Below are positions 5,463 through 10,551 of a DNA stretch of 64,000 nucleotides, piece by piece; position 1 is the first letter of the stretch; each line of letters starts with the position of its first letter. A model generated the notes under the pieces. The model was not told the origin of the DNA and did no database searches. It was given only the letters and a program-made list of their open reading frames with translations. The stretch lies in NCBI GenBank assembly GCA_965261395.1, contig OZ253462.1, positions 1,248,001 to 1,312,000 of the forward strand, read 5' to 3'. A program made the translations under genes and the position numbers. Origin of the DNA: Candidatus Latescibacterota bacterium. Lineage in GTDB: Bacteria > Latescibacterota > UBA2968 > UBA8231.

Positions 5463-7421
<1,959 letters not shown>

Positions 7422-7462
7422 TCACCGACGACCCCTTCAACCAAAACGGAAAAGAGAAAAAG

Positions 7463-8455
7463 ATGGGTAAAATTCGCGTGGGATTTATCGGCTGTGGTGG
7501 AAATGCCAGCGGGCACCTAGGGCGGATGCTCGGCATCCCCGAGGCCCAAGTGGTGGCTTTGTGCGATGTGGATCAGGCCAGTCTGCAGCGGGCCAAGGAG
7601 CGCAACCCGCAGGCCGCGGAGTTGCCGGAGTTTACCCACTACCAAGAGATGCTGGAGCAAGTCGAACTGGACGCGGTAGAAATTTCCACGCCACACACAT
7701 TGCACTTCGAGCAGATTATGGCCGCGCTGGACAAAGGGCTGCACGTGCTGACCGAAAAGCCGATGGTCTGTACTGTCGATCACGCGCACCAAGTTATCGC
7801 CAAAGCAGAGGCGACCGGCAAGGTCCTGATGATCTCCTATCAACGGCACTTGGGGGCGCAGTACCGCTATGTGCGCAATCAGATCGCGGCCGGGGAATTG
7901 GGGGATATCCAGTTTATAGCGGCGCTCCAAGACCAGAAGTGGTATCAGGGGACGATAGGGCTGTGGCGGCAGCAAATGGCGCTGTCGGGCGGCGGGCAGC
8001 TCAACGACTCGGGAAGCCACCTACTGGACATTGTGTTGTGGATGGCCGGGCTGGAGGTGGCCGAGGTGCAGGCCTACATGGAACACTTCGACTCCGAGGT
8101 GGATATCAACTCGGCGCTGTCGCTGCGCTTTGGCAACGGCGCGCTAGGGACTATTGCGGTGGTGGGCAACTCGCCGACTGGCGGGATGTGGGAGGACATC
8201 ACCATCTGGGGGACCAAGGCGGTGGTCTATATCCGTCAAGGACAGGTCTTCTACAAGACGCAGCACAGCGGTGAGGTGTACCAGGTCAATAACTTGCCCG
8301 GCTCGGCGACGCCCGACCAGAATTTCATCGACGCGATTCTCGGCCGCGACCAAGTGCAGGTGCCCCCCGAATGCGGTTTGCGGGTCATTGAGCTGACCGA
8401 AGCGGCATGGGCCTCGGCCGCCAGTGGGCAGCCGGTCAAAGTCGAGCGGAAATAG
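7463..8455 (+). CDS. Gfo/Idh/MocA family oxidoreductase
   Basis: GFIGCGG, HVLTEKPM and GGGQLNDSGSHLLD. Confidence 0.92.
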   Translation: MGKIRVGFIGCGGNASGHLGRMLGIPEAQVVALCDVDQASLQRAKERNPQAAELPEFTHYQEMLEQVELDAVEISTPHTLHFEQIMAALDKGLHVLTEKPMVCTVDHAHQVIAKAEATGKVLMISYQRHLGAQYRYVRNQIAAGELGDIQFIAALQDQKWYQGTIGLWRQQMALSGGGQLNDSGSHLLDIVLWMAGLEVAEVQAYMEHFDSEVDINSALSLRFGNGALGTIAVVGNSPTGGMWEDITIWGTKAVVYIRQGQVFYKTQHSGEVYQVNNLPGSATPDQNFIDAILGRDQVQVPPECGLRVIELTEAAWASAASGQPVKVERK

Positions 8456-8459
8456 ACGA

Positions 8460-8488
8460 TTGACCCGGTTCACTAGCTCTTGTATATT
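8460..8488 (+). promoter_or_regulatory. Sigma70-type promoter
   Basis: TTGACC (8460-8465), 17-nt spacer, TATATT (8483-8488). Confidence 0.7.
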
Positions 8489-8494
8489 AAAAAT

Positions 8495-8799
8495 TAAGTC
8501 GAGTTCGGGGGCCACAAACCCTTGTTGCCGCTACGCTGAGGCTCGAGGCTACGCGAGCGAGCCAACCCGGCTTTGTCACTGGCCGCAACGACGCGCAGAG
8601 TTGGAGTATGGATTATGAGGCGCGCACTAGCGAAAGGAGGTGGTTCATTGAGTAGTAATTGTACCGCAGCAGGGAGGTTGATCACTTGATCAACTCCAGG
8701 TGATCGACTACCTGGTCAGAAGCACAGTCGCTTCGGCGACATAGCTTCTGAGAGTACAGCCGGGCGCACCCCACCTTAGTGGGTGCGCCCGGTTTTTTT
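8495..8799 (+). ncRNA. Candidate structured non-coding RNA (~300 nt)
   Basis: Lies between a promoter and an intrinsic terminator with no credible long + strand ORF. Contains several hairpins including GTCGC-TTCG-GCGAC and an AAAGGAGGTG...AGTAGTA core. Confidence 0.6.
8760..8799 (+). terminator. Rho-independent terminator
   Basis: 12-bp stem CCGGGCGCACCC/GGGTGCGCCCGG followed by T7. Confidence 0.9.
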
Positions 8800-8864
8800 G
8801 TCCGCGTTGCCCTAGTTGGTTCCCACGCGGTATTTTTGCCATATTGTCCGCGAGGAGGCCGTCT

Positions 8865-9857
8865 ATGAAACGCATCGCCAAGCCCGCAGGGGCCTATAAC
8901 ATCGTGGTAGAAGAGGTCGAGGTTCCGGCCATTGCCCCGACCGAGATTTTGATTCGCGCCGAATGTTCGCTAATCAGCCGAGGCTCGGAGATATGGCGGC
9001 GCTACGTGCGCGAAGAGGCGATCGATCACCGCGCCATGGGCTACTCGCTGGTGGGCCGAGTCGCAGAGGTCGGCGCAGAGGTTGAAGAGTTCAAAACCGG
9101 CGATCTGGTCGCGGCCCTCGCGCCGCACGCCGAATACGTAGCGGTCGAAGTAGTAGCCGGCCAGCACAGGCCTGCGGCCGTGCGCCTGCCAGCGGGCCTA
9201 GCGCCCGAGGCGGGCACCTTCTGGCCGCTGGGAGCCAGCTCGGTCCTGTGGATGTGGGAGACCGAGGCCGGCCCAGATGATGTCATGGTCATCCAAGGGC
9301 AGGGCTTGGTAGGTAGCGGTTGTATGCAGGCGGCCAAGGCACAAGGCGCGGGGCGCGTCATCGGGATCGATGCCTTGCCCCTGCGCTGCGAACTGGCGCG
9401 TGAGTTAGGGGCCGACGTGGTGGTAGACGCTAGCGCCGGTGACTCTGTCGCACAGGTTTTGGAACTGACGGACGGAGAGGGTGCAGACGTGGTGGTCGAA
9501 GCTGTGGGCGGGCGGGCCGGAGCGCAGGCTTTTGCCGAGGCGCAGGACATGCTCAAGCGCGGCGGCCTCTTGCAGGTGCTGGGGCTATACGAAAACGAAC
9601 CCCTGCCGCTCTACTCAGAAAAAATCATGGGCAAGCGCCTCATAGGCAGCTACCTCGACGCCGACCGGCGGCCCGAAGGATCAGCACGTGCCCTAGAGCT
9701 ATTGACGACGGGCCAGATCCAGTTCGCCAAGATGATCACCCACCGCTTCCCCTACACCGAAGCGGCAGCGGCCTTCGACCTGCTCTACAATCGGTTGGGC
9801 GAGACGATGGCGGTATTGCTGATGTGGGAAACTGACTTAGGAGACGACGATGAGTAG
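8865..9857 (+). CDS. Zinc-binding (MDR family) alcohol dehydrogenase-like protein
   Basis: SLISRGSE, GYSLVG, GQGLVG, ADVVVEAVG and MITHRF. ATG at 8865 follows GAGGAGG. Confidence 0.88.
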   Translation: MKRIAKPAGAYNIVVEEVEVPAIAPTEILIRAECSLISRGSEIWRRYVREEAIDHRAMGYSLVGRVAEVGAEVEEFKTGDLVAALAPHAEYVAVEVVAGQHRPAAVRLPAGLAPEAGTFWPLGASSVLWMWETEAGPDDVMVIQGQGLVGSGCMQAAKAQGAGRVIGIDALPLRCELARELGADVVVDASAGDSVAQVLELTDGEGADVVVEAVGGRAGAQAFAEAQDMLKRGGLLQVLGLYENEPLPLYSEKIMGKRLIGSYLDADRRPEGSARALELLTTGQIQFAKMITHRFPYTEAAAAFDLLYNRLGETMAVLLMWETDLGDDDE

Positions 9858-10551
9858 GACCATAGAGAAGCTGTTCCGCGCCCCCTACGGGGTGCCCAAC
9901 GCGCTGCAAGTAGTAGAAGAAGGACTGTGGATTACCGATCAAATTACCGACCGGGTGGCACTGATTGAAATCGCCGAGCCGTCTGAATACGGCGTCACCC
10001 GCTTGACCCGCGATATACCTAGCGAGTCGTCCAATACCAGCGGCATGGCTTGGGGCGGCGGTTCGCTGTGGTTGGCGGCCAACGGGGCGGGTACGCTCTG
10101 GCGGCCCGCACGGCCGACGGACGCCGCGCAAGGGACGGGCGAAATTTTCGAGGTTGATCCAGATACCGGCGCGACCCGCAACCGCTATCCAGTGCCCGGC
10201 GGAGGCGGGGTTCACGGGATGGAGTACGATCCGTTTGAGGAGGGCTACGTGTGGATCACCACCCTCAAGAGCCAGACGCTGAGCAAAGTCAAGATCGCTG
10301 GCTGGTCGGTTGAGCACGTACTGGATCTGCCCTACGGGCGCGCGCACGGTGTGGTGCGGGTCGCCGACGGCATCTGGGTGGTGCATACAGCCGACCGCGT
10401 GATCGTCAAGCTCGATGTGGAGAGCGGGGCCGAGTTGGATCGAGTTATGGTGCCCGATAGCGACCCTGAACCGCATGGCCTGTCGATTTTTGGCGAGGAT
10501 TTGGTCTATTGCGACGCCACCTCTGGGTGGGTCGTCAAAATCAGCCTGTGA
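9850..10551 (+). CDS. Hypothetical beta-propeller-like protein
   Basis: Repeated xG[ML]xW/Y-D..LW blades (SGMAWGGGSLW, HGMEYD, HGVVRV..IW, HGLSIF). Confidence 0.6.
   Translation: MSRTIEKLFRAPYGVPNALQVVEEGLWITDQITDRVALIEIAEPSEYGVTRLTRDIPSESSNTSGMAWGGGSLWLAANGAGTLWRPARPTDAAQGTGEIFEVDPDTGATRNRYPVPGGGGVHGMEYDPFEEGYVWITTLKSQTLSKVKIAGWSVEHVLDLPYGRAHGVVRVADGIWVVHTADRVIVKLDVESGAELDRVMVPDSDPEPHGLSIFGEDLVYCDATSGWVVKISL

Follow-up and report, generated by a model that had tools for sequence, protein, structure and literature searches.

Architecture and transcription of the RNA locus

The window analysed here is a 64,000-nt stretch of a Candidatus Latescibacterota genome (GenBank assembly GCA_965261395.1, contig OZ253462.1, positions 1,248,001 to 1,312,000 of the forward strand), and it contains a free-standing gene for a structured small RNA of about 300 nt. 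The RNA locus lies at window positions 8460-8799 (+), between two co-oriented genes: a GFO/IDH/MocA-type oxidoreductase gene upstream (7463-8455) and a zinc-type dehydrogenase gene downstream (8844-9857). The RNA is characterized by a long Shine-Dalgarno (SD)-like complement of the 16S rRNA 3' end, which precedes a mini open reading frame (mini-ORF) of 13 codons. An earlier inspection of the letters without database searches (the sequence-only reading) had described a structured RNA that stands alone between a promoter and a terminator of its own, a description that is upheld by the present analysis.

The sigma-70-type promoter TTGACC-17-TATATT (8460..8488, +) was recovered as first described, with a -35 box at 8460-8465, a spacer of 17 nt, a -10 box at 8483-8488 and 10 of 12 consensus matches. 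It is the sole promoter-like site in 7000-10500, where shuffled sequence contained 0.7 on average. The TTGAC and the -10 box are kept in the genus alignment, and a TTGnnn-17/18-TATATT element was observed 77-180 nt 5' of the SD-like element in 20 of 33 family representatives, the distance between the -10 box and the SD ranging from 77 to 180 nt among genera. Transcription would start at about 8495. At the other end, the strong terminator of the first description consists of a 12-bp G+C-rich stem (8760-8771/8781-8792) followed by T7 (8793-8799), together spanning 8760..8799 (+). Its stem CCGGGCGC is kept across genera, and 7 of its 12 pairs are changed on both sides, with 97.2% of alignment cells paired. 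A simple scan did not list this terminator, probably because its loop exceeds the 3-8 nt limit of the scan.

The 305-nt RNA (8495-8799) has a predicted fold of -128.9 kcal/mol (z = -4.17), which none of 100 shuffled sequences matched. Three ORFs of at least 40 aa overlap the locus (8424-8618, +; 8494-8685, -; 8708-8881, -). A Pfam search of these three returned no match, and all of them are disrupted by 1-nt indels in relatives, in agreement with the earlier statement that some 300 nt hold no credible protein.

Transcription was examined in assembled contigs of RNA libraries, in which depth is a poor measure of expression and ends cannot be mapped. In libraries of two studies, single contigs confined to the RNA and without loose ends were observed. 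In library X9 the contig covers 8516-8783 (268 nt) at a word depth of 529.5, as against 2.48 for the upstream-gene contig of the same run, and in library X10 it covers 8509-8774 (266 nt) at a depth of 898.5, as against 2.9. In a third, size-fractionated library (X11), short contigs tile 8461-8724 at depths of up to 4639, the upstream contig having 13.3. A lack of contig cover, as at 8308-8460 in X11 or on the flanks in X9 and X10, cannot be taken to show absence. In a fourth library (X1), a relative is represented by a contig that runs from the RNA into the downstream gene, either by some read-through or by an assembly join. Together, the contigs hint at a discrete, very abundant transcript. 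Several of the RNA runs that hold this stretch are labelled sponge metagenome.

Two further details of these contigs were recorded. One X11 contig (depth 178.8), in which adapter letters immediately precede the genomic sequence, has its first base at 8461. This position lies within the promoter, 5' of the putative start; the contig may reflect minor initiation further upstream, transcription running on from the upstream gene, or an artefact. Additionally, 3-nt deletions were observed at 8651 (X11) and 8666 (X1 and X11), which correspond to in-frame AGT and GCA length variants of the mini-ORF also seen between species. Such strains or close relatives are therefore present in these communities.

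Distribution, genomic context and secondary structure

The RNA is single-copy in its 6.55-Mb genome. Of 24 congeneric genomes, 22 gave a BLAST match (81-96% identity across 310 nt), and none of 16 genomes from three other families did, a distance at which BLAST is insufficiently sensitive. A covariance model built from 23 genus sequences (R1) identified one copy in 68 of 75 genomes of the RNA's own family (f1), spread over 17 of the 31 genera of the class. Outside f1, this model matched 0 of 31 genomes of f2, 0 of 3 of f3 and 1 of 22 of f4. As R1 missed almost all members beyond f1, it was replaced by a second model (R2) based on 40 diverse members, covering their 3' domain and using a structure set by hand. 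R2 matched 58 of 63 genomes in f1, 21 of 30 in f2, 14 of 19 in f4, 2 of 2 in f3 and 1 of 5 in f8, and 0 of 31 in nine other families of the phylum. It thus reaches all four families of the class, in metagenome-assembled genomes (MAGs) titled Candidatus Latescibacterota. Related sequences are not independent of one another.

Nineteen weak or extra R2 matches were inspected, and 15 displayed the layout of SD, mini-ORF and stop within a hairpin: two in f3, four in genus g5 of f4, four in f2, one (doubtful) in f8, and four divergent second copies in three genera of f1. The remaining four (L227, L228, L232 and L234) comprised a terminator only, so that the f2 and f4 counts given by R2 should be read as maxima. 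Furthermore, an exact-pattern scan of one genome per species across 185,579 species returned 98 stretches. Of the 80 examined, 44 were family members by R1 and 36 were not. The records holding members are mostly titled Candidatus Latescibacterota or Latescibacteria, with some Gemmatimonadetes and one Handelsmanbacteria. As far as searched, sequence comparison thus describes a new RNA family confined to one class of MAGs titled Candidatus Latescibacterota, and the homolog collection that the sequence-only reading had called for extends across that class.

Several divergent loci were observed beside the main copies. In some genomes of the f1 genera g9, g16 and g19 (L236-L239), a second divergent copy is present. 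The 5' domain of these second copies opens with a common GUGCAUCC motif, and they stand nearer to the f4-type RNA (L223-L226) than to the main f1 copy. The pattern points to an old split into two paralogous subtypes, with a separate mini-ORF in each (e.g., MTAILWRCRV and MKETTTWRATA). In the case of L235, from f8 in another class of the phylum, a promoter-like site, an identical 13-mer of the SD-like element and a 15-codon Cys-rich ORF, MDSYSCAGDCWGCDA, were found; its R2 match is weak (31.9 bits) and its membership doubtful. L155 (in a MAG titled Actinomycetota) and L137 (in a MAG titled Cellulomonas) both contain the 13-mer GAAAGGAGGTGGT, a start codon and a 12-codon ORF ending in ...TREVAVR and ...TREVTVR, respectively, with a stop adjoining a hairpin-like stretch. 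L155 scored 13.4 bits with R1. These two loci may represent an analogous element, a long SD with a mini-ORF, in another phylum. Seven Geobacteraceae stretches (L111, L112, L115, L148, L156, L180 and L183) form one conserved region with no match to the RNA model and were set aside as unrelated; this region looks like the antisense of a conserved coding region that matched the pattern by chance.

The genomic neighbourhood bears on whether the element acts on its own or as a leader. According to the latter explanation, the locus would be a cis-acting leader in which a leader peptide and the terminator attenuate the zinc-type dehydrogenase gene at 8844-9857. The arrangement has the parts for this: a short ORF (8648-8689), putatively translated, lies upstream of the terminator (8760-8799); alternative pairings are available within the long hairpin H1 described below (s2 with s1 or s3); in genus g16 as in this one, a co-oriented gene follows closely on the terminator; and one RNA contig (X1) spans the RNA and the downstream gene. 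However, the downstream gene varies by genus, with at least seven different contexts, and it is convergent in at least three groups according to strands taken from Pfam matches: a sigma-54 response regulator in L090, a Reg_prop/Y_Y_Y protein in L085 and a URO-D-like protein in L078. In addition, the contigs of X9 and X10 that are confined to the RNA stop short of the gene, and no antiterminator pairing with the terminator stem turned up, although no systematic search for one was made. Synteny among the relatives largely refutes the attenuator, which we regard as highly improbable.

Secondary structure was assessed by covariation on a 40-sequence MAFFT alignment (A5), whose variable loops are unreliable. 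Taken together, the four helices of the 3' domain had 90.8% of cells paired, compared with 34-40% in controls in which the helices were slid along the alignment. Pairs changed on both sides numbered 22 of 42 (11-13 in the slid controls), and the covariation score was 0.311 (0.05-0.10). The observed value was reached by 0 of 500 shuffles on four of five measures and by 1 of 500 on the fifth, a control to be read with the caveat that related sequences can beat shuffles. Covariation in the 3' domain is strong.

The closing helix, TGTAC (8660..8664) with GTACA (8754..8758, +), was anticipated from the letters and is found in the alignment with four of five pairs changed on both sides and 78.9% of cells paired. 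In one example, U-A/G-C/U-A/A-U is replaced by A-U/U-A/A-U/C-G; the 5' strand of this helix lies inside codons 5-6 of the mini-ORF. Within it, a long hairpin, H1, pairs 8670..8688 with 8697..8714 (+) over 17 pairs, of which four show two-sided and eight one-sided changes, with 95.7% of cells paired. The second SD-like GGAGG of the RNA (8673-8677) lies in the 5' arm of H1, which also takes in the first two bases of the stop codon. A variable hairpin, H3 (8716..8751, +), follows, in which TCAGAAGC and GCTTCTGA (8716-8723 with 8744-8751) enclose an inner GTCGC-TTCG-GCGAC. This hairpin had also been proposed from the letters; seven of its eight outer pairs are changed on both sides, and 74.2% of cells are paired. 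H3 is missing in some genera (L093, L103 and L106), as expected of a stem of variable length.

The junction of three hairpins that the sequence-only reading had drawn inside the closing helix was not retained, since two of the three are better read as the single, covarying H1. The first of them, TTGATC/GATCAA, can form in this genus but is not the family-wide fold: 67.5% of its cells are paired, hardly above shuffles, and H1 explains the alignment better. The second, CCAGGT/ACCTGG, is likewise formable, with 97.9% of cells pairable, but it never covaries and the long H1 is better supported. The 3' arm of H1 reads CAGGUGAUCGACU-A-CCUG and is near-palindromic, which gives it an alternative self-hairpin (8696-8701/8710-8715). 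CCAGGU/ACCUGG, with zero covariation, is therefore permitted as a possible alternative state, in which the H1 3' arm would pair either with the end of the ORF or with itself.

The 5' domain (8495..8631, +) was modelled from the alifold consensus of 23 genus members, which contains hairpins at 8506-8511/8519-8524, 8540-8545/8558-8563 and 8565-8576/8595-8607. This domain is kept within the genus and varies in length and sequence among genera. Changes in its helices are mostly one-sided, and the covariation evidence for them is weak. The GGCTCG/CGAGCC pairing noticed at first (8540-8545/8558-8563) belongs to this consensus and includes one compensatory pair. TTGTTGC/GCAACGA is 78.3% paired, with one compensatory pair and three pairs with broken cells.

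The 16S complement and the mini-ORF

The SD-like element, SD1 (GAAAGGAGGUGGUUC, 8632..8646, +), is complementary to the 16S rRNA 3' end, ...GGAUCACCUCCUUUCU, which was read from the genome itself; the complement extends to up to 15 nt when G.U pairs are included. The sequence-only reading had pointed out AAAGGAGGTG just before the junction as complementary to this end, and the element is as described. Its 13-mer GAAAGGAGGTGGT (GAAAGGAGGUGGU, 8632-8644) is invariant in the genus and in 39 of 40 aligned family representatives, the exception being L078 with GGGAAGGAGG, and the remaining families of the class retain its GAAAGGAGG part. In the whole 6.55-Mb genome the 13-mer occurs once, and the 9-mer GAAAGGAGG was counted 46 times, where composition predicts 51; SDs of this length are therefore not typical of the organism. 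The 46 include, at about 106,810, the antisense strand of the 16S 3' end. GGAGG is under-represented in this genome (14,263 occurrences, 20,637 expected from composition).

Downstream of SD1, the mini-ORF (8648..8689, +) has a TTG start, 13 sense codons (MSSNCTAAGRLIT) and a TGA stop (8687-8689), exactly the short frame noticed in the letters. An ORF of 9-13 codons was found at this place in 63 of 63 distinct f1 core sequences, with TTG (46), GTG (11) or ATG (6) as the start and TGA (57), TAA (4) or TAG (2) as the stop. The stop never gives way to a sense codon and always falls at one fixed point of the structure, within the 5' arm of H1. Elsewhere in the class, the families follow this plan with ATG or GTG starts. 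Spacing was counted in 56 rows, a few of them alternative ORFs. A gap of 6-7 nt separates GGAGG from the start in 44 of these rows, and one of 9-10 nt separates the second GGAGG, inside the ORF, from the downstream stop in 49. The last sense codon therefore stands at 6-7 nt from the second GGAGG, as at initiation.

These patterns weigh on an explanation in which the mini-ORF is a structural by-product. Under it, the RNA would be a non-translated small RNA, and its SD-like element would serve as a stabiliser or decoy by binding the 16S tail or the 30S subunit, or else would be a protein-binding site. The 16S complementarity far exceeds what an ordinary SD needs, the ORF is embedded in helices with the U and G of its stop paired, and SD1 may be partly sequestered. 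There is also a precedent in the STAB-SD of cry3A, described in PMC4113751 as an SD-like stabiliser that binds 30S without translation. Against this, the first base of the start is limited to T, G and A, so that the triplet is always a start codon. Moreover, the stop changes only to other stops, even at the cost of a G-C pair: the G-to-A change that yields TAA or TAG breaks a pair of H1 (four cells at pair 66-89). In L224, where TGA has become CGA, the next codon is TAA, and L225, read by eye, behaves likewise. In the 35 alignment rows that share the start column, each ORF column corresponds to a single codon position; all ORF indels, six or more, are therefore multiples of 3, whereas 1-nt indels were found elsewhere in the RNA. 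A purely structural constraint predicts none of these patterns, for which reason they count against a non-translated RNA, an explanation that we consider distinctly unlikely.

The opposite explanation takes the locus as a small mRNA, whose Ser/Thr-rich peptide of 9-13 residues is the functional product and whose RNA structure serves stability or translational control only. Such an mRNA would be expected to keep its start, frame and stop, as all 63 distinct sequences and the remaining families of the class do. The spacing between SD and start is optimal, M-S-S or T-T motifs recur, with Ser encoded by AGT or TCN (L079, L083 and L106), and high abundance of the RNA would suit bulk peptide production. 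However, the peptide sequence behaves otherwise. Mean column entropies at codon positions 1, 2 and 3 are about 0.78, 0.70 and 0.57 bits, so that an excess of third-position variation is absent, in a test that has small numbers and is confounded by RNA constraints. Covarying substitutions in H1 shift the C-terminus (GRLIT, GRWIT, RRSTT and GGATT), and a single genus encodes nine distinct peptides, with radical replacements such as C/R, N/K/T and G/R. Between families, almost nothing is common beyond the part fixed by GGAGG. Furthermore, no conserved neighbour gene for modification, export or sensing was seen in the contexts examined, and about 130 nt of conserved 5' structure would be left unexplained. 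A functional peptide is thus unlikely, though it keeps some weight. With start, frame and stop kept while the peptide drifts, the comparison favours selection on translation over selection on the peptide.

Known RNAs and a proposed ribosome engagement

A search at Rfam gathering scores identified no family in the 64-kb window, nor in 18 diverse members, and the novelty of the RNA stands. At E <= 10, seven matches were listed in 8300-8950, the best being the Caulobacter small RNA CC2171 (RF01867; 20.6 bits against a cut-off of 75, E = 0.036). None of the seven was a Flavo-1, Bacteroidales-1 or Acido-Lenti-1 motif, so the likeness to these motifs proposed for the RNA's core is not supported. As the sequence-only reading had judged, the RNA is neither tmRNA nor RNase P RNA. 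The tmRNA of the genome lies outside the window (G000:C1:1232050-1232408, 194.2 bits), RNase P RNA was found elsewhere in the genome, and ARAGORN detected nothing in the window.

It could still be asked whether the locus is a divergent copy of a known RNA such as 6S, tmRNA, CC2171 or one of the Flavo-1-type motifs. RF00013 (6S RNA) had no match anywhere in this genome, which would leave room for an unrecognised 6S; however, 6S RNA is a rod with a central bubble, whereas the RNA described here is a multi-branch junction. Among catalogued RNAs, CC2171 comes closest in both score and layout. Its consensus has an unpaired GAAAGGAGGUGAUCCA followed by GUG, 7 nt after GGAGG as in the present RNA, then a helix closing internal hairpins, and then a terminator. 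On the other hand, the aligned closing helix is non-canonical at all seven positions, and only the 5' SD-like stretch and the terminator align well. CC2171 is also about 160 nt long and comes from Alphaproteobacteria, in contrast to about 300 nt and a different phylum here. Its function is given as unknown in bioRxiv 10.1101/2022.01.24.477521. With Rfam scores below gathering level throughout and tmRNA and RNase P RNA located elsewhere, a divergent copy of a known RNA is extremely improbable.

Other systems resemble the RNA in part. STAB-SD, the 5' mRNA stabiliser of Bacillus thuringiensis cry3A, is likewise an SD-like element that pairs with the 16S 3' end, and the bound 30S blocks 5'-3' decay (PMC4113751); high abundance of the present RNA would fit such stabilisation. 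STAB-SD stands near the 5' end of a long mRNA, in the 5' untranslated region, and directs no translation initiation. Here the element lies 77-180 nt into a short RNA, a conserved start follows 6-7 nt on, and there is no long coding sequence.

The present RNA can also be compared with systems in which a very short ORF is read. In leader-peptide attenuators (the leaders of amino-acid operons) and in the mccA mini-gene, it is the act of translating the ORF, and not the peptide made, that engages downstream hairpins and a terminator. The RNA described here differs in having no conserved downstream gene, no identified antiterminator and a large conserved 5' domain, and, with respect to mini-genes, no adjacent modification genes in the contexts examined. 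Dual-function small RNAs such as SR1 and RNAIII combine a structured small RNA with a translated short ORF, and their peptides are longer and conserved as proteins, in contrast to the drifting peptide of 9-13 residues found here, beside which the RNA pairing is kept. Of the features of a small-protein mRNA or a dual-function small RNA, conservation of the SD, start and stop was observed, and purifying selection on the peptide was not. By its sequence features, the RNA is probably a ribosome-binding small RNA that bears a short ORF and belongs to a family without an Rfam match.

With a probability of roughly 0.55, we read the locus as a translated, ribosome-engaging small RNA of a new family, in which engagement of the ribosome and the fold of the RNA, and not the peptide, would be under selection. 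The alternatives first proposed for it, a ribosome-binding RNA or a micro-peptide mRNA, fit the invariant 16S complement and the start, frame and stop kept in every member examined. The RNA is made from its own sigma-70-type promoter and ends at its own terminator, as conservation shows and the RNA contigs hint. The 30S subunit would then bind the invariant GAAAGGAGG(UGGUC) through 9-15 bp with the 16S tail, which would put the start codon, 6-7 nt downstream, in the P site. We infer these two steps because of the complementarity, the spacing and the pattern of start-codon variation. The ribosome would translate 9-13 codons, melting the closing helix and the 5' arm of H1 on its way, and would halt at the stop within that arm. 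There, the geometry seen across the family would bring the second GGAGG into register with the anti-SD, a contact that the ribosome may use. The 3' arm of H1, once released, could refold on itself, as its pairing permits. Possible outcomes are the capture or parking of ribosomes on a hyper-abundant RNA, stabilisation of the RNA, and a translation-dependent exposure of the anti-SD-like arm.

Several observations weigh against this interpretation. We infer both the translation of the mini-ORF, from sequence conservation, and what ribosome engagement would be for. Helices enclose most of the ORF, and pairing of 8527-8532 with the 3' half of SD1 is possible in this genus (GCCGCY:GGUGGU; 99.3% pairable, with one-sided changes only). 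Accessibility predictions for SD1 disagree across 14 homologs, with values between 0.00 and 0.83. Two bases of the stop codon, U and G, take part in H1 pairs (65-90 and 66-89), so that conservation of the stop is partly structural. The recurring Ser/Thr-rich pattern at the N-terminus makes a functional peptide possible. On the transcript side, one RNA contig (X1) links the RNA with the downstream gene, and contigs give neither transcript ends nor levels.

As a more specific and tentative proposal, to which we give appreciably less credence, the RNA could be a decoy directed at the ribosome, a ribosomal counterpart of what 6S RNA is for RNA polymerase. The 9-15 nt complement would capture 30S, and the mini-ORF would carry the ribosome over 9-13 codons to the stop. 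At that point the second GGAGG would re-engage the anti-SD at an initiation-like spacing, and in slow-growing symbionts a hyper-abundant RNA would in this way park or titrate ribosomes, with the internal anti-SD-like arm as a built-in off-state. If true, this would be a new mode of global translational control, and CC2171 and the actinobacterial loci with the 13-mer and a mini-ORF could be analogous members of a wider, unrecognised class. If false, the RNA is still a well-defined new family fit for Rfam and a marker transcript for these symbionts.

In either case, the design combines the longest 16S complement of the genome, a mini-ORF conserved in frame and free in sequence, and a stop placed in a covarying hairpin with SD-like and anti-SD-like arms. 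It thereby provides a testable case of an RNA selected for its handling of ribosomes. In the open-access full-text literature, nothing relevant on small RNAs of Latescibacteria or on the 13-mer was found, and no described RNA regulators of Latescibacterota were found. Candidatus Latescibacterota is uncultured, and this RNA is kept across a class of it and present in RNA libraries labelled as sponge metagenomes.

The upstream neighbour of the RNA, a methionyl-tRNA synthetase (MetRS) gene and/or a GFO-type gene, is common to this genus and a few related genera. In the window, the gene two positions upstream of the RNA is a 642-aa ORF (5493-7421), which clusters with the RNA-adjacent ORF of L077. 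The latter contains MetRS (tRNA-synt_1g) and tRNA_bind domains and lies directly 5' of the RNA. Linkage of a metG-like gene to the RNA is common to several genera.

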